NCBI GenBank assembly: GCA_039714075.1
Contig: JBDLKA010000007.1
Span: 828 to 64,827, forward strand
Source: Candidatus Krumholzibacteriota bacterium
GTDB taxonomy: Bacteria > Krumholzibacteriota > Krumholzibacteriia > LZORAL124-64-63
Length of the DNA: 64,000 nucleotides
Direction of reading: 5' to 3'
Of this stretch, positions 1,990 to 48,237 are shown one piece after another (the stretch's first letter is position 1; every line of letters starts with the position of its first letter). A program made the translations under genes and the position numbers. Under the pieces are notes generated by a model, which did not search any database, had not been told where the DNA came from, and saw only the letters and a list, made by a program, of their open reading frames with translations.

Positions 1990-3258
1990 ATGAAAACATT
2001 CATTTGGACTGTAATTGCCTGCCTGGCCACTATTTCGGTGGCCCATGCCCAGGCCGTCATCTCACTGGAAATCACCGGCTCATGGACTGCCGCGGACTAC
2101 GACGTGAGTTCTACCGGCCCCACCAGTGGGGCGCTGGGGATCCCGGAAGAGAACGACGATCTAGTGTTCGGGACCTCCCCGTCCGACGGCTCCACAACCT
2201 TCACGCTCCTGGTCGATACGGCCGGTGCCCAATTCATTCCGGCGGGGACTCTGGGGGTGACCCACGACTGGTACGGCTACACGAATGTCAGCCTGGTGGG
2301 AACCCACACCTTCGGATCCGCTTCCTGGGTGTCGAACGACATCCTGACAGCACTGAATGGTCCTGGAGGTGCGACGGCCACGCTGTGGACGAACACGGAT
2401 ATCAGCCTGGCCAGTCCGACGCTCTTGTCTTTCCGCATGTTCGGCACCTGGGAAGGTAATGACGCGGACTTATTCGTCGGGCCCAGGACCGCCACCACGA
2501 TCGGCACGCAATTCCTGCTCTGGGAGTATTACGGCGGCGAGGAGATCCGCTCATGGTCATATGCCGCCACCTCGGTCGTGCCGGTGGAAATCGACATCAA
2601 ACCCGGTAGCGACCCCAACACGATCAACTGTTTAGGGAAACAAGGCATCATTCCCGTCGCCCTGCTGACCACAAATACCTTTGACGCCCTGACCGTCGAC
2701 CACACGACGGTGAGCTTCGGGCGGAGCGAAGCCTCGGTGATCCAAAACCTGAAAACCCCGGCACTCGGGACCGATGGGCGGCGGCCGGGGGTCGGCCCGG
2801 TCATGAAACGCCACGAGGAGGACGTCGACGGCGACGGGGATCTGGACCTGGTGTTTCATTTCGCACGGGACGAGGCCGGCATCAGGTGCGGGGACACCGA
2901 GGCCACCCTTACGGGGGAAACCTACGACGGGCAAAGATTCCTGGGAACCGATGCGATCCGGACCGCCCCGGTGGGGCTGGTGCCTGGTAAGGCAATCGAG
3001 ATCTCGCCGAACCCATTCAACCCCGCCACCAACATCTCTTTCTTCACCGAGAGTCCACAGCGGGTGAAGGTGGGCGTGTACGATGTACGCGGCCGGCTTC
3101 TGACGCTATTGGCCGATCAATCCTACCCCGCAGGCCGGCACACGGTCCAGTGGCTGGGGAGAGATACGGCCGGACGATCGGTTCCCTCGGGAATATATTT
3201 CTTCCGCGTGGAACTGGGCGAGAGAACCGTGGTCCGCAAGGCGATGTTGATGAAGTAG
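1990..3258 (+). CDS. Secreted protein with T9SS type-A C-terminal sorting domain
   Basis: Signal peptide 'MKTFIWTVIACLATISVAHA'. RBS GGAGGG 8 nt upstream. C-terminal domain 'NPFNPATNISFF...GIYFFRVELGERTVVRKAMLMK' matches the Por-secretion-tail / FlgD-Ig-like CTD. Confidence 0.8.
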   Translation: MKTFIWTVIACLATISVAHAQAVISLEITGSWTAADYDVSSTGPTSGALGIPEENDDLVFGTSPSDGSTTFTLLVDTAGAQFIPAGTLGVTHDWYGYTNVSLVGTHTFGSASWVSNDILTALNGPGGATATLWTNTDISLASPTLLSFRMFGTWEGNDADLFVGPRTATTIGTQFLLWEYYGGEEIRSWSYAATSVVPVEIDIKPGSDPNTINCLGKQGIIPVALLTTNTFDALTVDHTTVSFGRSEASVIQNLKTPALGTDGRRPGVGPVMKRHEEDVDGDGDLDLVFHFARDEAGIRCGDTEATLTGETYDGQRFLGTDAIRTAPVGLVPGKAIEISPNPFNPATNISFFTESPQRVKVGVYDVRGRLLTLLADQSYPAGRHTVQWLGRDTAGRSVPSGIYFFRVELGERTVVRKAMLMK

Positions 3259-3487
3259 GGTGAAGCAACGGCCAAACGTAAGTTGTCGCTCCGGATTTGG
3301 ATTCTTCCCGGGTGGAGGAAGGCCCCCTCCGCCTGGGAAGATTCAGGGGGCCTTGTTGTTTCCCATTGGCCTCTGATCCGAGCCCTGCATCCTGAGCCGA
3401 ATTTTCGAATGGGACTTGCCATCGGCCCGAATCACGTTAACATCGGTCCCGTAATTGGATCATCAGACCTCAACCAGGGAGAGACAC

Positions 3488-3835
3488 ATGGCCAAGCGCG
3501 TCGACTGGTACTACCACCGCAAGGGCTGAACGAGCTGCGGCAGATCGCAGGGGTTCCTTGCGGATAATGACGTGAACGTGAAGGAAGAGACCAGCGCCGC
3601 GAAGAAACTGGGCGCCGACAAGGCCCGCGAACTGGCGAAAAGCGCCGGCCGGATCGTCGTGATGAAGGGCAAGAAGGTCTCGGATTTCGACATGAAAAAG
3701 GATCCGCCCAAAATGGCCGACCTGGTCTCGGTCATGGTCGGGGCGACCGGCAACCTGAGGGCGCCGACCATCGTCCGCGGCAAGACCGTGCTGGTGGGAT
3801 TCAACCAGGAAGTCTACGACAAGGTGCTGGGTTAA
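3488..3835 (+). CDS. ArsC/Spx/YffB-family thioredoxin-fold protein, probable selenoprotein with in-frame TGA (Sec) at 3527-3529. The ORF track's 3572..3835 is the truncated version.
   Basis: ATG at 3488 with SD 'GGGAGAG' upstream. Read-through gives 'MAKRVDWYYHRKG-U-TSCGRSQGFLADNDVN...', which aligns with YffB/ArsC N-termini ('[26 protein letters not shown]'), placing the TGA exactly on the catalytic Cys. The resulting 115 aa is the family-typical length, and the C-terminal 'VLVGFNQEVY' resembles the YffB 'LLGFSDSSY' end. Confidence 0.5.
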
Positions 3836-16142: not shown

Positions 16143-18056
16143 TTACTTGAGCATGGCGATCTTCTGGATCGCAACCTGCCCCCCACTCTCCATGCGGATG
16201 AAGTACATGCCGCTGGCGACCTGACGTCCGGTGTCGTCCTGGCCATGCCATACCAACTGGTGCACCCCGGCCTGTTTCACACCGTCAACCAGCGTGGCCA
16301 AGCGGCGTCCGGCAATGTCCACGATGGACAACCGGACATGACCCGCCTTGGCCAGACTGAAGCGCAGAGTCGTGCTCGGATTGAACGGGTTGGGATAGCT
16401 GGGTTGCAGGTGGATGCTGCTGTGAGTGCCCTGCGGTACGGCGCTGGCACTTCCCAGCCTCACGCACAGGTCGTCGATGTAGAATTGCTGACCGCCGACA
16501 AGCAGGCGCTGCAGGTTACCGACCAGGGTCACGGTGCCGTAGATATAACCGGGACCGCCGGTGACCGAGACATTCACACTGACACCGGGGAAGAATCCCG
16601 CCGGGATGGTTTCGATCGGTCCGACGTACAGAATACCGTCAATGCCCAGGTTCTCGACGCCCGAACCCTTTACGTAATCGAAACTTACCGAAGCGACGGG
16701 CACGAAGGGCGTCAGATCGTAGGTCACGCCGATGTTGTTGATGTGCAGAACATTGCCGGTACCCAGGGGCCCCCAGGGAGCACCCGTGCTGACGCTGTTG
16801 AACTGCAACCCGGAGCCGTCGTCGAATTCGGCCAGACCAACGTCGATACCGTCTTCGGTGAAGATCACATCGCCCGGCAGATCGCCGTAGGGTCCGCCCC
16901 AGAACATGCCCGCTGGCTGGCTTTCGTTGTCGCTGACGAGGTCACAATCGTTGGCGCCGCCGACTTCCTTGACACAGACATTGTCGACCATGAATTCCTG
17001 GCCGGCCAAAAGCAGTTTTTGGACGTCGCCGGTCAGAACCACTTCGCCCCGCTGCCCGACTGGCATCGGGAACGTGGTTACGCTCATCGTCACGCCGGGC
17101 GCGACCGCGGTCGGGAACAGATCAAGGTCGCCGATATGCAACGTGGCCCCGTTGACCTGCAGGTTCTCCATGCCCCCCAGATCGATATACTCGAAGCTGA
17201 CGCTCTGCACCAGGATACCGAGGGCGCTGATATGGTACTCGTTGGATACGTTGTTGATGTTCATGGCCAGACCGGAACCGAAATCGGCAATGCCCGGAGC
17301 CTGGATGTCACAGAAGTTGAAGCCGGTGGGTCCACCCCAGTCGATCACCCCGATATGCACCGGAATGCCGTCCTCGACGAACATCAGGTCGCCGGGTAAA
17401 TGGGTGCCTGAACCCCAGGTATTGCCCACGGCCTGACTCTCATGGTCGACAAGATAGTCACAGCCGCCGACAATCGGGCTCACATAGCCATTGTCGCAGC
17501 GTACATGGTCGATCCACAACTCCTGGCCGCCCACCTGCATTGTGGCCACCGGACCGGTGAGGGTCACCAGACCTTTCACCCCACCCCCGGGGACCGCAAT
17601 CGTGGTGACGTTCATCGTCACTCCGGGGGCTACCAGTCCCGCCAGGCTGGCAAGATTCGGCCCCTCGAGCACGACCCCGAATCCGTTGACTTGCATATTC
17701 ACCGAACCACCCTGGTTCAGGTATTCGAAGGTAACGTCGGCGGCGGAACTGAAATCAAACAGAACGCCGACGTTGTTGATTTCCAGGGTCTGATTCGTGC
17801 CGAAAAAGATGGGACTTCCGTACATAGGGTCGATCTGGGCGTAATTGAAATAGGGAGTTCCCCCGCTGTAGAAGTTCGCCAGGTGAAGATTGGCACCGTA
17901 TTCGTGGAACATGAAGGCACCGGGCAGCATGCCGGACGGGATACCATAGAAGGTGCCCAGGGGTTCGTTGTCGAAGGTGACGTTATCGGCTAAGGCATTG
18001 CCGGACAGCAGCAGGCTGAGCAGCAATATGGTTAATATGCGCAGGTTCGATTTCAT
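16143..18056 (-). CDS. Secreted protein with three ~200-aa tandem internal repeats and a T9SS type-A C-terminal sorting domain
   Basis: Start at Met 'MKSNLRILTILLLSLLLSGNALA' (18056). Three repeats each contain 'N[LM]QVNG...APGVTM[NS]VTT...LTG.V..L.V.GQE...D.VC'. CTD 'YPNPFNPSTTLRFSL...GMYFIRMESGGQVAIQKIAMLK'. Confidence 0.8.
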   Translation of the reverse strand: MKSNLRILTILLLSLLLSGNALADNVTFDNEPLGTFYGIPSGMLPGAFMFHEYGANLHLANFYSGGTPYFNYAQIDPMYGSPIFFGTNQTLEINNVGVLFDFSSAADVTFEYLNQGGSVNMQVNGFGVVLEGPNLASLAGLVAPGVTMNVTTIAVPGGGVKGLVTLTGPVATMQVGGQELWIDHVRCDNGYVSPIVGGCDYLVDHESQAVGNTWGSGTHLPGDLMFVEDGIPVHIGVIDWGGPTGFNFCDIQAPGIADFGSGLAMNINNVSNEYHISALGILVQSVSFEYIDLGGMENLQVNGATLHIGDLDLFPTAVAPGVTMSVTTFPMPVGQRGEVVLTGDVQKLLLAGQEFMVDNVCVKEVGGANDCDLVSDNESQPAGMFWGGPYGDLPGDVIFTEDGIDVGLAEFDDGSGLQFNSVSTGAPWGPLGTGNVLHINNIGVTYDLTPFVPVASVSFDYVKGSGVENLGIDGILYVGPIETIPAGFFPGVSVNVSVTGGPGYIYGTVTLVGNLQRLLVGGQQFYIDDLCVRLGSASAVPQGTHSSIHLQPSYPNPFNPSTTLRFSLAKAGHVRLSIVDIAGRRLATLVDGVKQAGVHQLVWHGQDDTGRQVASGMYFIRMESGGQVAIQKIAMLK

Positions 18057-18154
18057 GGTTCTTCCTCCTGGGGTTTGAGGTTGCGGCGATATTCCGCGTC
18101 CACAGGAGGATTGTTTTGATGTCGCTGAAATCCTTACAAAAAATCTTGAAAAAA

Positions 18155-19879
18155 TTACTCCGTTGAAACCAGGAACTGCTCCAAAACCTTCATGGAACCG
18201 GGCAGCCAACGGCTTGCTACCTCCCCTGCCTTGCTTTCAGGTCCCGAAAGTTCACCCAGGATTTCCCGCAAGAATGTCAGGCCTGCAGGAATATGGGCGA
18301 GGAAGGACCGCTTGCCTTTGACATGCCCCAGGAACCCGTAGGCACCCAGGGCCTGCATGATTCGTTGAAGACCCGCAGCCAGGGCCATGGCCCGGATATC
18401 GGCAGTAATTAAAGAGGTTGCAGGACCGGTGGAAGTGGCGGACACCGCAAACCGGTCCAGAAGTTCGGCGCGCAATCCCTTCTTGAGTACCACGTATGGA
18501 TCCAGCAATAGGGACATAAGATCATAGGTCAGCGGACCCGGCCGCATGCCCTGAAAGTCCACCAGACGGACCCGGCCGTTCTGCAGATGGATGTTCTGTG
18601 ACTGGAAATCGCGATGGATCAGGACCTGAGGCTGGGCGGCCACCCTTCCGGCCAGAGTATGGAATTCCTCGTCGAGGTCTCCAAGCCCGGCCGGGTTCAG
18701 ACCCAGATGCCCAACCAGGAAGTGCTCCCTGAAATAATCCGTTTCCCAGCGCAGGGCGTCATAGTTCAGGCAGCGATCCACCGCGAGGGGGCATCGTGAC
18801 CGGGCAGCTTCGGTGGATGATTGAAGGCCCAGCAGATGATCCACGGTCCGCCGGTAGGCATCGGCGACGGGATCGGACTGACGACCTTTGCTTTGGACCA
18901 GGGAAAACAGGCTGTCCGAACCCACGTCCTCCATCAGCACCGCGTGGTCGGCCTGGGAAACGGACAGCAGGGCCGGTCCGCCCAGGTTTTGACTTTCGAG
19001 AAAACCCGCGATCTGGACGAAGCGGTCGAACTCCTCGTCCTCCCGAGGACTGACCATGGCCACGGCCGACCAGTCCCCGGCCGCCATCCTCCAGAACCTG
19101 CGGTCCGAGCCGTGACCGGTGATGCGATCAAGGCTCATTCCCCGGCAACCGGTGGCCCCGGAGGGCTGGGCGTCGAGGTAGCGGGCCAGCGTGCCCAGGT
19201 CGCTCCACTGGAAATCACCCGGAGCGAATCCCCGGACACTTTCCGGATCGCCGGCCAACGCACGCACCAAGGGATCGATCAGGGAGGAAAAGCCCGGCCC
19301 GATGTCGTCCAGAAGTCGGGAGGAGAAAACGCCGATCCCGGTGTAGGTAAGATTCCGGGACCCGCGGCCGGCAGAGTCATTCGGCTGCCCGGCGATGCTT
19401 ACGATACGGCCCCCCGGGGACAAGACCACCGAATTGACCGCGGACCAGTCGGTCAGCAGCAAAGTGGCCAGCGCGCCTGACCGCAGATGCTCCGCAACCA
19501 GTTCCGGCAAATCGGCATCACAGAGAACATCGCCGTTGTGGAGAAGGAAATTTTCCGCGCCGGACAAAAAATCCCGGGCGCCATGCAGAGCGCCGCCGGT
19601 ACCCAGGATGTCGGCTTCGGGAAACACGGCGAAACGGCTCGCGTCCGGCCTGCGGGCGATGTGGTCCGCCACCAGCGGGCCCAGATGATGGGTGTTGATC
19701 GCAATTTCCCGAATGCCGGTTCCGGCGTCGAAGCCGTCGATGATGTGATCCAGCAGGGGCCGTTCCCCCACCGGAAGCAGGGGTTTGGGAATGTGGTCGG
19801 TGACAGGCACCAGGCGCGTTCCGTAACCGGCGGCCAGAATCATTCCCCGCAGGGCACCGGGTGCGGTCCCGTCATTCAT
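18155..19879 (-). CDS. Bifunctional sugar-1-phosphate nucleotidyltransferase / anomeric sugar kinase (MurU-like N-domain fused to AmgK-like phosphotransferase C-domain)
   Basis: N-terminus 'MILAAGYGTRLVPVTDHIPKPLLPVG' is an NTP-transferase G-x-G-T-R-L motif. The C-half carries APH/choline-kinase-like motifs 'LIHRDFQSQNIHL' and 'VRLVDFQG'. Confidence 0.7.
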   Translation of the reverse strand: MNDGTAPGALRGMILAAGYGTRLVPVTDHIPKPLLPVGERPLLDHIIDGFDAGTGIREIAINTHHLGPLVADHIARRPDASRFAVFPEADILGTGGALHGARDFLSGAENFLLHNGDVLCDADLPELVAEHLRSGALATLLLTDWSAVNSVVLSPGGRIVSIAGQPNDSAGRGSRNLTYTGIGVFSSRLLDDIGPGFSSLIDPLVRALAGDPESVRGFAPGDFQWSDLGTLARYLDAQPSGATGCRGMSLDRITGHGSDRRFWRMAAGDWSAVAMVSPREDEEFDRFVQIAGFLESQNLGGPALLSVSQADHAVLMEDVGSDSLFSLVQSKGRQSDPVADAYRRTVDHLLGLQSSTEAARSRCPLAVDRCLNYDALRWETDYFREHFLVGHLGLNPAGLGDLDEEFHTLAGRVAAQPQVLIHRDFQSQNIHLQNGRVRLVDFQGMRPGPLTYDLMSLLLDPYVVLKKGLRAELLDRFAVSATSTGPATSLITADIRAMALAAGLQRIMQALGAYGFLGHVKGKRSFLAHIPAGLTFLREILGELSGPESKAGEVASRWLPGSMKVLEQFLVSTE

Positions 19880-24763: not shown

Positions 24764-24996
24764 GGTGGTCCTTTCAGCCGGCTCGAGGGCATTTCATCCG
24801 GCTGTTGATCAAATGATCAGGATAACTATAATCGTCGGAACGATTATTCCGGGGTCCGAATCGGGGCCCCGCGAGAAATCTACCGGAAGACCGCCGGGAA
24901 CTCAAGCCGCCAACTGCGGCTGTGAGTCGTTCACGAGTCATTGGGAAATCATCTTGAATCCAAGATGCAAGATGCATGATGCCCAGGGAGAGAACG

Positions 24997-26055
24997 ATGA
25001 AAACAGGGAACTATGGGAAACGCCCCGGAAGGACCGCCGCGGCGGCCGCAGCAGCCGGATTGGTCATTTTGGCCTGCGCCTGGCCCGGTCTGGCCCAGAC
25101 TTCGGAGGGGCAGCCCCAGGATCTGCAGTTCGAAGTCATCAACGCCACCACCGGGGAACCCGGAACCGTGGACCGGATGACCGTCGAATACGTTACCGCC
25201 CGTCGGAACAGTGTGGCGGATTTTGAACCCGAGGGGTCCGCCTTCATGGCCCTGGGCGTTCCGGTCATCACCAACGGCAAGTACATCGTCACCGTCTGGA
25301 CCGGCGGTGTTCCCTACTGGTGGAGCAAGCGCGGCCGGGAGTTGGTCGAAGGTCCGGTGGTCCTGCACGTTTTCGACACCGTCAGCAGCCTGGAAGGCGT
25401 TTCCTTTGCGGGCCTGAACCTGGTGGTGCGCCGTCAGGAATCCATCCTGCGCCTGGAATACATGCTGCAGGTCGCCAACGAGGCATCGCCCCAGGTTTCG
25501 GTCTTCGGCAGTCCCGCCACCTTCGAACTGGCCCTGCCCCAGGGCGCGTCGGAAATCACGGCCAGCTACACCCGCGGCCCCGATCCCACGCCCATCCCGG
25601 TGGCTTTTTCCGGAACCACCGGCGGGTTGTCCGTGCCCCTGACCCCGGGCCGGAACCAGATCCGCCTCGAAGCGGTCGTTCCCTGGACCGAGGGCATGGT
25701 GATTCCCGTGGGTTCGGATTTGCCCGTCGATTCCTGGAGTGTCCTGGCCTCGCCGGAATGGCTGGAAATCGGCTCGACCGATGTCGAGGAAAACGACAGT
25801 GACGGGGTCCAGGGCTTCCGCCGCTTCGCGGGCTTTCCCCTGGAGAGCGGTGAAATCGTCGACCTTCGGCTCAATTCCGGTGAACACGGCGCCGGGCCCG
25901 AAGAAAAGCTGTTCGCGAAGGAAGCCCCGGCCGAACAGGAAGACACCGCCGCAGCCGAAACCGCTGACGAGGGCAGCGGAAAACAGCTGCCCTTGATTTT
26001 CCTGCTGGTTCTGATCATCGTGATCATCGTGGCGGTTCGACGCCGCCAAACCTGA
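24997..26055 (+). CDS. Secreted hypothetical protein with C-terminal hydrophobic anchor plus basic tail
   Basis: SD GGGAGAG before ATG 24997. Signal peptide 'MKTGNYGKRPGRTAAAAAAAGLVILACAWPGLAQ'. Acidic low-complexity linker, then 'LPLIFLLVLIIVIIVAVRRRQT*'. Confidence 0.6.
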   Translation: MKTGNYGKRPGRTAAAAAAAGLVILACAWPGLAQTSEGQPQDLQFEVINATTGEPGTVDRMTVEYVTARRNSVADFEPEGSAFMALGVPVITNGKYIVTVWTGGVPYWWSKRGRELVEGPVVLHVFDTVSSLEGVSFAGLNLVVRRQESILRLEYMLQVANEASPQVSVFGSPATFELALPQGASEITASYTRGPDPTPIPVAFSGTTGGLSVPLTPGRNQIRLEAVVPWTEGMVIPVGSDLPVDSWSVLASPEWLEIGSTDVEENDSDGVQGFRRFAGFPLESGEIVDLRLNSGEHGAGPEEKLFAKEAPAEQEDTAAAETADEGSGKQLPLIFLLVLIIVIIVAVRRRQT

Positions 26056-26109: not shown

Positions 26110-26958
26110 ATGTCCGGAACCATCGACCTGACCCTCGGCCACAGTCCCGACCCCGACGACGCCTTCATGTTCTACGCCCTGGCCAAGGACAAGATGGACA
26201 CCGGGCCCTACCGCTTCACCCACGTCATGGAAGACATCCAGACCCTGAACGAACGGGCCACCCGCGGCGAGCTGGACATCACCGCCATCAGCATCCACGC
26301 CTACGCCTACGTGCTGGACAAGTACGCCCTGCTGCCCGCCGGCGCCAGCATGGGCTTCGGCTACGGCCCCATGGTCGTCGCCAAGGAAAAGATCACCCCG
26401 GCCGACCTGTCGGGCATGACCATCGCCATCCCCGGCAGGATGACCTCGGCCTACCTGGAGCTGCAGCTGGCCATCGGACAGTTCGAGGCCGTCCACGTGC
26501 CCTTCGATGAAATCATCCCCCGGGTCGCCGCGGGAGAATTTCCCGCCGGCCTGATCATCCACGAGGGCCAGCTCACCTATCAGGATGCCGGTCTCGCCGA
26601 ATGCATCAATCTGGGACAGTGGTGGTGGGAAACCACCGGCCGCAAGGACTGGCCGCTGCCGTTGGGCGGCAACGCCATCCACAAGAAACACGGCGACAAG
26701 ATGAAGGACATCAGCGACATCCTGACCGGCAGCATCAAGTACAGCCTGGAGAACCGGCAGGCGGCCCTGGACTACGCCCTGGGCTGGGCGCGGGACATGG
26801 GCCTGGAACTGGCCGACGAATTCGTGGGCATGTACGTGAACGACTGGACGCTGGATTACGGCGACCGGGGCCGTGATTCCATCCGGGAACTTCTCAAGCG
26901 GGGGCACGCGGCGGGATTGATTCCCGAAGTGAAGGAACTGGAGTTCGTCGCCGGCTGA
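26110..26958 (+). CDS. Menaquinone (futalosine pathway) MqnA/MqnD-family protein
   Basis: N-terminal 'LTLGHSPDPDDAFMFYAL' matches the PF02621 family start ('LG.SPC.ND.F.FYAL'). ~280 aa periplasmic-binding-protein-like fold family. Confidence 0.6.
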   Translation: MSGTIDLTLGHSPDPDDAFMFYALAKDKMDTGPYRFTHVMEDIQTLNERATRGELDITAISIHAYAYVLDKYALLPAGASMGFGYGPMVVAKEKITPADLSGMTIAIPGRMTSAYLELQLAIGQFEAVHVPFDEIIPRVAAGEFPAGLIIHEGQLTYQDAGLAECINLGQWWWETTGRKDWPLPLGGNAIHKKHGDKMKDISDILTGSIKYSLENRQAALDYALGWARDMGLELADEFVGMYVNDWTLDYGDRGRDSIRELLKRGHAAGLIPEVKELEFVAG

Positions 26959-33070: not shown

Positions 33071-35023
33071 TCAGGCGCCGTATTTCTTGATGGCCGCATC
33101 CAGGCGCGGCAGCATGACGAAGATGAAGCCGGCCACCGCCAGGATGGCCGCCGCCAGCACCACGAACATGGTCGTGCCGGGCTCCAGGCCGCTGATGAAA
33201 CCGGACATCTTGTTACCGACCGCGGTGGCCAGGAACCAGCCGCCCATCATCAGGCCGACCAGCCGCTTGGGCGCCAGTTTCGTCACCAGCGACAAGCCCA
33301 TGGGCGACAGGCAAAGCTCACCGAAAGTGATGATGAGGTAGTAATAAACCAGCCACATCATCGAGGTCTTGGCGGCGCCGTCCTGGCCCAGTTTCGCGCC
33401 CAGCGCCATGACCAGCAGCGAGACGGTGGTGATCACCATGCCGAGGAAGATCTTGCGGGCCGTGGTCACGCCCTTGCCCCGCTTGACGCGCCAGGCAAAG
33501 AACCAGACCACCACCGGAGTAAGGATTACGACAAAAAACGGATTCAGGAATCCGGTCAAAAGTTCGGCATTCACCAGCCGTACATACTTGCCCGGAGCCA
33601 GTCGCGGAGTGTCCGGGCCGGCCTTGCGATAAACCTCTCCGAAGGAGCCCTGGGAAACCATGATCACCGGCACCTGGGACCCCTCGATGTCGCGGGTCAG
33701 GGCGACCTGGCCGCTGGAAGGTGTCTGTTCGGGAACGATCTTGACGCTGGTGGTCGTCACCCCGTGGGCGTCCTTCGCCTCGGTGATGGCGACGTTTTCA
33801 TCGGGGAACACCTTGCACGCGAAACCGCCCTCGAGGTCGGGCTGGCCCGTGTATTCGTGCACCGTAACCCCGGACATCTTGTCGGCCTCGATCATGGCCA
33901 CGGTGGACTGGTTGAGGATGCGGGCGCCGAACATGGACTCGGCCTGCTCCGAAACGGTGAACAGGGTGCGCTCGTCAGGCCGCTCCAGATCCGCAGCGGC
34001 GTTGCCGAAGTACGAAGGCATGGCTTTCTGGGCGTAGAACTCGGTGGCCGTCGGAATCCACTCGGCCCGGCGGTCGGTGTTGTTTTCGGCGAAAACGGTG
34101 ATCAGGCCGCCGCTCAGATGCAGCACCATGAAGAACGCCCCACCGGCGATGTAGACCGGGATCAGGGCGGCCAGGCCCGGCTTCTCCTCCGGATTGGCCC
34201 GCCGCACCAGGTTCAGGAAATAACCCATGATGGGCAGCATGCCGATGATGAAGGCGAAGGTCACCGGCCCGATGGTGTTGGTCACGAAGGGGATCTCCTG
34301 CCCCACGAAATACCCGAGGGCCCCGAAACCGCCCGCCGGAAACAGAATGGTCAGGAACACCTGGCGCAGCCCGAAATCACCCGGAGCGGTAGTGGGTTTG
34401 CGGTCGGCATCGGCCAGTCCCTTCCAGTTGATGAGCAGGATCACGACCCCGATCAGCATGCCCACTCCGGCTGCCGAAAAGGCCATGTTGAAGCTCCACA
34501 GGTTCCGCAACGGAGCGGCCAAAAGAGCGGAAATGGTCGCCCCGATGTTGATCCCCATGTAGAAGATGTTGAACCCCGCGTCGCGTCGCGGATCATCCGG
34601 AGCGTAAAGATTACCCACCATGGCCGAGATGTTGGGTTTGAAGAACCCGTTGCCGAAACAAAGCAGGGCCAGACCGGCGTAGAAGGTCGGCATGCTGCGG
34701 ATACCCAGGGCGAAATAACCGGCGGCCAGCAGGATGCCACCGACCAGCACCGAACGGCGGTAACCCAGAACCCGGTCGGCGATCATGCCCCCCACGAACG
34801 GCGTGAAATACACGAAGGCCATGTAGGTCCCGTAGATTTCGCCGGCGGCCGCGGTCGTGAAACCCAGTCCGCCCCGTTCCTTGTCGATGATGTAGAGGAA
34901 CAGGATGCCCAGCATCAGGTAGAAGCCGAGGCGCTCCCACATTTCCGTGAAGAACAGGGCTTTCAAACCCCTGGGATGCCCTTTGGGCGGGGCACCGGTC
35001 ATGGCTTGGGCTTGGGACATCAT
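33071..35023 (-). CDS. POT/PTR2-family proton-dependent oligopeptide transporter with ~190-aa extracytoplasmic insertion
   Basis: POT signatures 'ERLGFYLMLGILFLYI', 'GGMIADRVLGYRRSV', 'FYMGINIGA'. Large soluble insertion 'ENNTDRRAEW...LTGFLNPF' between late TM helices. Confidence 0.85.
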   Translation of the reverse strand: MMSQAQAMTGAPPKGHPRGLKALFFTEMWERLGFYLMLGILFLYIIDKERGGLGFTTAAAGEIYGTYMAFVYFTPFVGGMIADRVLGYRRSVLVGGILLAAGYFALGIRSMPTFYAGLALLCFGNGFFKPNISAMVGNLYAPDDPRRDAGFNIFYMGINIGATISALLAAPLRNLWSFNMAFSAAGVGMLIGVVILLINWKGLADADRKPTTAPGDFGLRQVFLTILFPAGGFGALGYFVGQEIPFVTNTIGPVTFAFIIGMLPIMGYFLNLVRRANPEEKPGLAALIPVYIAGGAFFMVLHLSGGLITVFAENNTDRRAEWIPTATEFYAQKAMPSYFGNAAADLERPDERTLFTVSEQAESMFGARILNQSTVAMIEADKMSGVTVHEYTGQPDLEGGFACKVFPDENVAITEAKDAHGVTTTSVKIVPEQTPSSGQVALTRDIEGSQVPVIMVSQGSFGEVYRKAGPDTPRLAPGKYVRLVNAELLTGFLNPFFVVILTPVVVWFFAWRVKRGKGVTTARKIFLGMVITTVSLLVMALGAKLGQDGAAKTSMMWLVYYYLIITFGELCLSPMGLSLVTKLAPKRLVGLMMGGWFLATAVGNKMSGFISGLEPGTTMFVVLAAAILAVAGFIFVMLPRLDAAIKKYGA

Positions 35024-35179: not shown

Positions 35180-36676
<1,497 letters not shown>

Positions 36677-46935: not shown

Positions 46936-48237
46936 TCAAGACCGGCGGCCGGCCTTGAATCCCAGGCCTTCTATGACGCCGGCAATCTTTTGCGGGTCCA
47001 GGTCCCGACCCCGGACCACCGCACGGCCATCATCCAGAAAGACCTGGCAATCGCTGACGCCCTCCAGTTCGGAAACGGCCCGCATGACGCTGCCGGAGCA
47101 GTGACTGCAATTCATTCCCTCGACCGCGAATTCCAGGGTGCGGGAATCATCGTTCACGGCACAAGTCTCCTCTGCTTCGCATCCGCAGGAATGTCCCCGA
47201 CGGCGTGACAACCACCAGCTGAAGGACATGATGAACACCAGGGCGGCCCCGGCGGCGTGATCGAACCACCCGATCCCTTCGTGATGATGCCCGGCTTCGC
47301 CCAACAAGGGTATGGCCGCGGCCGCCCGGGGCAGAACCCAGTCCAGCAGCAGGCCGCCGCCGAAGGCGCTGACCGCGACGGTCAGCAGATAGATGATGGT
47401 GGTTTTCCGCCCGAGCACCCGGAAGATGGTCGTCACCGTGGCCGCGTTCGTGGCCGGCCCGGCGATCAAAAAGGCCAGGGCGGCGCCGGGGCTGGCGCCC
47501 ATGAAGATGAAACTGGCCGCCAGCGGCACACTGGCCGTGGCGCAAACGTAGATGGGGATGCCCACGATCATCATCAGGGCGACCGACAAGGCTCCGGAAC
47601 CCAGGTAACGGGCCAGGAAATCCGCCGGGACCACCGCGCCCAGAATCCCCGCGATGACCAGCCCGACCAACAGGGCCCGGCCGATGTCCCCGGGCAGGGT
47701 GACAAAACCGTAGTCGAAGGCCGCGGTCATTTTCGGGCCCAGGCCCTGCGGCCGCACGATGTCACCCGAGCCCGCGCCTTCCAGACCTTTGCCGTCGCTG
47801 GTGGTCCGGTGGGTGTCCGGAGCGAAGGTCTGCACCAGCCCCCCACCCAGCAACCCCGTGAGCAGGGCCGCGACCGGGCGGAAGATCGCGAACAGGGGGC
47901 CCAACATGGTCCAGGTCACCAGGATGGAGTCCACTCCGGTCTGCGGCGTGGACAACAGGAAAGCCGTGGTCGCGGACCGGCTGGACCCGTGCTGCCGCAG
48001 AGAGGCCGCCACCGGAATCACGCCGCAGGAGCACAGGGGCAACGGAACGCCAAACAGGGAAGCCTTGAACACCGGTCCCATCCCCCGGCCGCCCAGATGG
48101 CGCTCCAGCCAGACCGGGGAGATGAAAACCGACAACAGACCGGCCACCAGAAAGCCGAGCAGAAGCCATGGCGCCATGCGGGCGGTCACCTGCCAGGTTT
48201 CGATAATGATGAGTGTTATCATTTCAATCATGGCCAC
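46936..48237 (-). CDS. Predicted permease (COG0701/DUF318, SO_0444-like) with C-terminal heavy-metal-associated (HMA) domain
   Basis: Multi-TM permease. 'CSCG' and C-terminal 'GMNCSHCSGSVMRAVSELEGV' (MxCxxC HMA). Confidence 0.7.
   Translation of the reverse strand: MAMIEMITLIIIETWQVTARMAPWLLLGFLVAGLLSVFISPVWLERHLGGRGMGPVFKASLFGVPLPLCSCGVIPVAASLRQHGSSRSATTAFLLSTPQTGVDSILVTWTMLGPLFAIFRPVAALLTGLLGGGLVQTFAPDTHRTTSDGKGLEGAGSGDIVRPQGLGPKMTAAFDYGFVTLPGDIGRALLVGLVIAGILGAVVPADFLARYLGSGALSVALMMIVGIPIYVCATASVPLAASFIFMGASPGAALAFLIAGPATNAATVTTIFRVLGRKTTIIYLLTVAVSAFGGGLLLDWVLPRAAAAIPLLGEAGHHHEGIGWFDHAAGAALVFIMSFSWWLSRRRGHSCGCEAEETCAVNDDSRTLEFAVEGMNCSHCSGSVMRAVSELEGVSDCQVFLDDGRAVVRGRDLDPQKIAGVIEGLGFKAGRRS

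Follow-up and report, generated by a model that had tools for sequence, protein, structure and literature searches.

ArsC-like selenoproteins have been in the literature since 2006–2008 (PMC1794560, PMC2398784). Zhang et al. 2006 counted ArsC-like proteins among 25 bacterial selenoprotein families (PMC1794560). In the GOS study, 42 Sec and 238 Cys sequences come under "Arsenate reductase 2, cd03032, UxxC" (PMC2398784), and a 2026 review of the prokaryotic selenoproteome describes an 'Arsenate reductase-like protein' as a UxxC selenoprotein (PMC13188914). An earlier note on this DNA, which assigned the gene described here to the ArsC-like selenoproteins, was right to call them a known class. 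NCBIfam NF041106, 'ArsC family (seleno)protein', is the family that the 2026 review names 'Arsenate reductase-like protein', and is probably the same group as the GOS 'Arsenate reductase 2, cd03032, UxxC' entry. No literature record of Sec use in Krumholzibacteriia was found.

Published rules for bacterial SECIS (bSECIS) elements give an apical loop of 3–9 nt, a stem of 4–16 bp and a distance of 16–37 nt from the UGA to the loop (PMC13188914). They also require a G within the first two nucleotides of the loop, most often with G or U after it, and a minimum free energy of ≤ −7.5 kcal/mol (PMC13188914).

The locus at 3488–3835 (+ strand) lies in a 64-kb stretch of DNA, the whole of which was analysed and is called the window below. 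It is very probably a real selenoprotein gene of this known, curated family. Like NF041106 proteins in general, its product has a UxxC motif with Sec first and a length of about 115 aa, belongs to a family with Sec and Cys forms in one alignment column, and is encoded with a bSECIS-type hairpin. It differs from them in nothing of kind; the window copy comes from a Krumholzibacteriia-type genome.

Results

The gene and its in-frame UGA

The full coding sequence runs from 3488 to 3835 on the + strand. By sequence inspection it starts at ATG 3488–3490, with a Shine-Dalgarno motif, GGGAGAG (3477–3483, +), 4 nt 5′ of the ATG. From this ATG the frame reads MAKRVDWYYHRKG, then TGA (3527–3529), then TSCGRSQGFLADNDVN..., and ends at TAA 3833–3835. 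With UGA taken as a sense codon it comprises 115 codons and gives a 115-aa product, in which Sec would be residue 14. The UGA is codon 14, the U of a U-T-S-C motif, and aligns to Cys10 of Spx; TGC at codon 17 (3536–3538) encodes the putative resolving Cys of the U-x-x-C motif and aligns to Spx Cys13. Residues 87–94 (3746–3769, +) form the signature T-G-N-L-R-A-P-T, a run of invariant alignment columns. It is the counterpart of the LLRRP segment in Spx/ArsC proteins and aligns to Spx G-L-L-R-R-P.

The mechanical ORF list holds just 3572–3835, an 87-aa frame with a GTG start (3572–3574, +). This GTG is an internal Val codon and not the true start: gene callers cut the gene short because its active-site Sec is encoded by an in-frame UGA. 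The coordinates that the earlier note had given for the short call, for the ATG with its Shine-Dalgarno motif, for the TGA and for the 115-aa read-through frame were all correct.

A sigma-70-like promoter match, TTGCCA and TAACAT with a 16-nt spacer (3416–3443, +), lies about 45 nt upstream of the ATG. It is only a weak match to the consensus. Two such matches occur in the region against 0.2 expected, the second of them within the gene.

Family membership and fold

The read-through product, with Cys placed at the UGA, matched NF041106 with 121.2 bits (cutoff 85). Its residues 5–110 covered positions 1–107 of 107, the whole of the model, which bears out the earlier placing of the product in the ArsC/Spx/YffB superfamily. 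The match to Pfam ArsC (PF03960) was a marginal pass, at 24.4 bits against a gathering cutoff of 24. Scores against the Spx/MgsR models were far below the cutoffs (TIGR01617, 28.1 bits against 75.05; NF002459, 31.3 against 123), and identity as an Spx regulator was rejected on these scores. TIGR00014, the glutaredoxin-coupled arsenate reductase ArsC, was absent among the families with E ≤ 1, and on this HMM criterion an arsenate reductase proper was also rejected. The product resembles ArsC of the R773 type (TIGR00014) in belonging to the PF03960 superfamily and in having an N-terminal nucleophile at the β1/α1 junction. However, the selenoprotein form of the R773 type is UxxS, whereas the window protein is UxxC.

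The structure was modelled by AlphaFold on a natural Cys-form homolog, P0076, which is 44% identical (pLDDT 89). In this model Cys14 lies at the N-terminus of a helix (residues 15–26), right after a strand (residues 7–10). The N-terminus of a helix that follows a strand is the classic position of CxxC in the thioredoxin fold. A Foldseek search with the model gave Spx, YffB and ArsC-related proteins as top matches, with TM scores of 0.5–0.55.

Among solved structures, the best matches by both sequence and fold are Spx/MgsR proteins (Bacillus subtilis Spx; PDB 1z3e, 3gfk, 6gho, 7f75), which are RNA polymerase-binding, redox-sensing regulators. They share the X-T-S-C motif and the L-R-x-P segment with the window protein, and U14 and C17 align with the C10-T-S-C13 pair of Spx. 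In contrast to Spx, the window protein is about 15 residues shorter and has no C-terminal extension, and the TM score is only about 0.5. The earlier note had set the U-x-x-C motif on the catalytic Cys by way of YffB. The placing of the motif stands, as the Spx pair shows, but the YffB alignment as printed was offset by one residue. Thus, the locus encodes a thioredoxin-fold protein of the ArsC/Spx/YffB superfamily, subfamily NF041106.

A codon column that holds only TGA and TGC

A protein search found 177 homologs, and almost all of the 120 matches listed are stored at 79–101 aa. They are therefore cut at the same place as the window gene. One of 116 aa (P0067, L037:1973-2320) comes from a JGI gene call that put Trp at the Sec-UGA, giving G-W-TSC; its DNA has TGA.

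A genome scan yielded 33 loci, from Krumholzibacteriia, Myxococcota, Planctomycetota, Acidobacteriota, Gammaproteobacteria and Binatia. Codon 14 is TGA in all 33, and in 34 of 34 genome-derived sequences. As MAKRVDWY was among the search patterns, this set of loci is biased towards that N-terminus, and five homologs found only via their C-terminal halves were therefore checked separately. In each of the five, the called start is preceded by a start codon, a related N-terminus and a TGA; the N-terminus is variable and reads (I/V)D(W/F)xYxR(K/N)G. A metagenome scan added 80 further loci, and the combined set was deduplicated to 114 distinct homologous genes. At codon 14 these have TGA (102 genes) or TGC (12 genes) and nothing else. 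The Cys orthologs thus carry TGC at exactly this codon, and a column of this composition is the signature of a Sec/Cys pair.

Codon 17 encodes Cys in 33 of 34 sequences (TGC in 24, TGT in 9). In the closest relative (81% identical; L002:2567-2580), and also in L061, Cys17 is replaced by Ser (AGT) to give U-T-S-S. Either the second Cys is dispensable in some members, or there is an assembly error at these sites.

A SECIS-type hairpin tied to the TGA

The earlier note had reported a hairpin with arms TCGCAGG/CTTGCGG about 20 nt 3′ of the UGA. The arms are present, at 3545–3551 and 3557–3563, but the distance needs correcting: the stem starts 15 nt downstream of the UGA and the loop 23 nt downstream of it. 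ViennaRNA adds the pair G3552–C3556, so that the hairpin (3545–3563, +) has a stem of 8 bp (5′ arm 3545–3552, 3′ arm 3556–3563) and the loop GUU (3553–3555), with an energy of −13.2 kcal/mol. Taken alone this energy is unremarkable (z = −1.05 against shuffles, and eighth of 89 windows in its own gene). Since it is ordinary for a gene of 61% GC, the case for the hairpin is one of comparison between genes.

All four published bSECIS rules hold for the window hairpin, and for 32 of 35 orthologs. The stems stand at the same place and differ by clade: Krumholzibacteriia have TCGCAGG/CCTTGCGG, Myxococcota have GCGTCCA/TGGACGC, and there are compensatory variants, among them GGTCTCC/GGAGACG and GCCTCC/GGAGGC. 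RNAalifold gave no meaningful consensus on a mixed alignment of 32 sequences, where the two main clades have their stems one column apart. It was replaced by a count over named structures, by per-sequence folds and by direct enumeration of hairpins. In the named-structure count, 81.7% of cells were paired compared to 27–48% in slid controls, and none of 500 shuffles reached the observed value. The loop G is the third base of its codon and is fixed there (AAG 20, AAA 0), whereas a comparison Lys codon elsewhere uses both (AAG 22, AAA 12; p = 0.002 for the difference). A search of Rfam at the gathering threshold gave no match in the window, which is uninformative for the SECIS hairpin.

The hairpin also goes with the codon. 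A rule-compliant hairpin of ≤ −7.5 kcal/mol was found in 76 of 102 Sec forms compared to 2 of 12 Cys forms (Fisher p = 1.5e-4, Mann-Whitney p = 2.5e-5), a contrast that is not corrected for phylogeny and includes only 12 Cys forms. Of these 76 hairpins, 74 have a spacing of 22–23 nt. A strict perfect-stem criterion fails 26 of the 102 Sec forms. The stem-loop of the earlier note is thus conserved: it keeps its place while its stem changes, follows the bSECIS rules, and accompanies TGA rather than TGC.

This element resembles the bSECIS of E. coli fdhF type in being a hairpin within the coding sequence right after the UGA, with G then U in the loop, a spacing of 22–23 nt (range 16–37), a stem of 7–8 bp and a loop within 3–9 nt. 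Its sequence is unrelated to that of the fdhF SECIS, as is usual for bSECIS elements.

One subgroup of the ArsC-like family departs from the fdhF type in having no loop G. This Planctomycetota-type subgroup (U-T-[ST]-C-KRADAFLE...; L012:10040-10094, L030:3653-3707 and L031:10040-10094, also L070, L095, L103/L104 and L117) keeps the TGA without a G-in-loop hairpin at a spacing of 22–23 nt. Its hairpin is shifted by about 4 nt, has the loop CUU, CUC or CUUGA, and falls outside the published bSECIS rule. It may represent a non-canonical SECIS class.

Selenocysteine machinery and other candidates

A tRNA search of the 64-kb window found no tRNA, and hence no tRNA-Sec, and none of the 51 window ORFs scanned against NCBIfam was a selA, selB or selD gene. 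In the related loci, tRNA-Sec was not found in 33 of them, nor sel genes in about 510 kb; E. coli SelA, SelB and SelD, used as tblastn queries on 572 kb of sequence (the window plus related loci), gave no match. As sel genes need not be linked to the ArsC-like gene, these negative results are uninformative. We infer the presence of selA, selB, selC and selD in this genome from the ArsC-like gene itself.

A scan of the window for TGA-interrupted genes found no second selenoprotein gene. Only one pair of ORFs shares a frame across a TGA, 24976–26055 and 26110–26958 (+), and it has coding-like composition. The gap between the two consists of the TGA at 26053 and 18 codons. The first product has a hydrophobic anchor and then RRRQT at its end, while the second ORF has its own Met start. 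They are probably two adjacent genes and not a second selenoprotein.

Other readings of the UGA

We considered whether the UGA might be read through without selenium, either by a near-cognate tRNA (Trp or Cys) or because TGA is reassigned, as in code 4 or 25. The Trp that a gene caller put at the homologous TGA of P0067 would fit such a reading, as would the lack of visible sel genes in the window. However, reassignment of TGA is excluded because TGA is otherwise the commonest ordinary stop in the window, where it ends 28 of 52 genes; the genome is also 61% GC, unlike the organisms that use code 4 or 25. Against both forms of the reading, Cys codons are the only sense codons in the column, the hallmark of a Sec/Cys pair, and the TGA forms are the ones with which a SelB-type hairpin with a G-U loop is associated. 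Selenium-free read-through is therefore very unlikely.

Could the true gene instead be short, either the 87 aa from GTG 3572 or a 101-aa form that begins just after the TGA? On that view, the stretch from ATG to TGA is either not translated or encodes a separate leader peptide of 13 codons. The mechanical ORF call is indeed 3572–3835, and about 170 homologs in public databases are called in the same way, at 79–101 aa, but their called starts vary and are inconsistent with one another. In the 34 genome-derived sequences, codons 1–13 and 15–25 encode invariant amino acids with synonymous variation: Ala2 is encoded by four different codons and Arg4 by five, and for Ser16 both the AGY and the TCN family occur. 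Codons 15–28, which lie between the TGA and GTG 3572, are likewise kept as protein. Most orthologous loci have a GGAG-type motif in the position of the window's GGGAGAG, whereas no motif of Shine-Dalgarno type precedes GTG 3572 and nothing favours a start there. In 102 independent genes the reading frame is preserved through the TGA, and the Cys forms are continuous ORFs through the column. Moreover, the short product would miss strand β1 and the redox motif of the fold. The 13 upstream codons, which have their own Shine-Dalgarno motif and ATG, are thus selected at the protein level, as are the codons between the TGA and 3572; this agrees with the earlier note, and we regard a short gene as extremely improbable.

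An in-frame stop in a single sequence is, a priori, most often a pseudogene mutation or an assembly or sequencing error, but the chance of either is negligible here and both are refuted by the comparative data, as TGA occupies this same codon in 102 distinct genes, which come from many independent assemblies and at least six phyla and whose downstream frames are intact and conserved.

Genomic context

The gene order around the locus is common to Krumholzibacteriia MAGs, at 70–93% amino-acid identity, and this synteny assigns the window to that class: hutU, thyX, the ArsC-like gene, an EEP-family nuclease gene, genes for a 209-aa protein and a 392-aa membrane protein, and malQ. The L040 homolog of the 392-aa membrane protein matches Pfam MFS_1. 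The ArsC-like gene stands alone and is convergent with the nuclease gene, the two stop codons lying 10 nt apart. Synteny is kept only within Krumholzibacteriia, and no neighbour is conserved across phyla; the context thus offers no clue to the substrate. NCBIfam scans of the window ORFs found no ars genes in the neighbourhood, so the context does not support arsenate reduction.

Within Krumholzibacteriia, thyX, which encodes an FAD-dependent thymidylate synthase (675–1598 in the window), lies directly upstream of the ArsC-like gene. The two are adjacent in L003, L004 and L005, and only 26 nt apart in L005. In the window, a gene for a 422-aa protein with a T9SS sorting tail (1990–3258, +) lies between them.

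Some other window genes deserve mention. T9SS type A C-terminal sorting domains occur in two secreted proteins, that at 1990–3258 (+) and one at 16143–18209 (−). Two tandem genes for POT-family oligopeptide:H+ symporters lie at 33071–35023 and 35180–36676 (−); the first product, of 650 aa, matches the model in two stretches. The gene at 46936–48237 (−) encodes a Cu/Zn efflux transporter of the SO_0444 family that has a CopZ/HMA metal-binding domain fused at its C-terminus. This domain gave a weak match to a 'UxxU metal-binding (seleno)protein' model, and the ORF has no in-frame TGA.

Discussion

The data above suggest how the gene would be expressed. Translation would start at ATG 3488, and the ribosome would pass the UGA at 3527 without terminating. 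The putative SECIS hairpin at 3545–3563, inside the coding sequence, would recruit SelB-GTP carrying Sec-tRNA(Sec), and selenocysteine would be inserted as residue 14. The motif U14-T-S-C17 would then be placed at the N-terminus of helix α1. Sec14 would make the nucleophilic attack, with Cys17 resolving the intermediate via a selenenylsulfide bond. The product is most likely a selenol/thiol-disulfide oxidoreductase.

What else might the family do? One alternative to a generic oxidoreductase would be a redox sensor or regulator that resembles Spx but is based on selenium; another, for Krumholzibacteriia, would be a dedicated partner of the neighbouring thyX. About 90% of the family are Sec forms, its X-T-S-C motif is identical to the redox switch of Spx, and Spx is the best structural match, all of which would suit a sensor. 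Such a role is conceivable, but we consider it unlikely, and prefer the oxidoreductase.

The family is already on record, as are its UxxC motif and its type of SECIS. What we report is therefore an annotation fix and not a discovery, and it raises no new biological question. Its value lies in correct annotation: once the UGA is taken as Sec, the full 115-aa redox protein is recovered, where the window gene and most of about 170 public homologs are stored as 79–101-aa fragments without the active site. The residual interest lies in this widespread mis-annotation, in the Krumholzibacteriia lineage, and in the Planctomycetota-type hairpin without a loop G. The Planctomycetota-type subgroup may use a bSECIS that lacks the canonical loop G. 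A UGA that encodes Sec at this locus would also imply that a Krumholzibacteriia-type organism decodes selenocysteine, with machinery that we deduce from the gene and not from the window or the related loci, and the locus would be the first record found of Sec decoding in Krumholzibacteriia.
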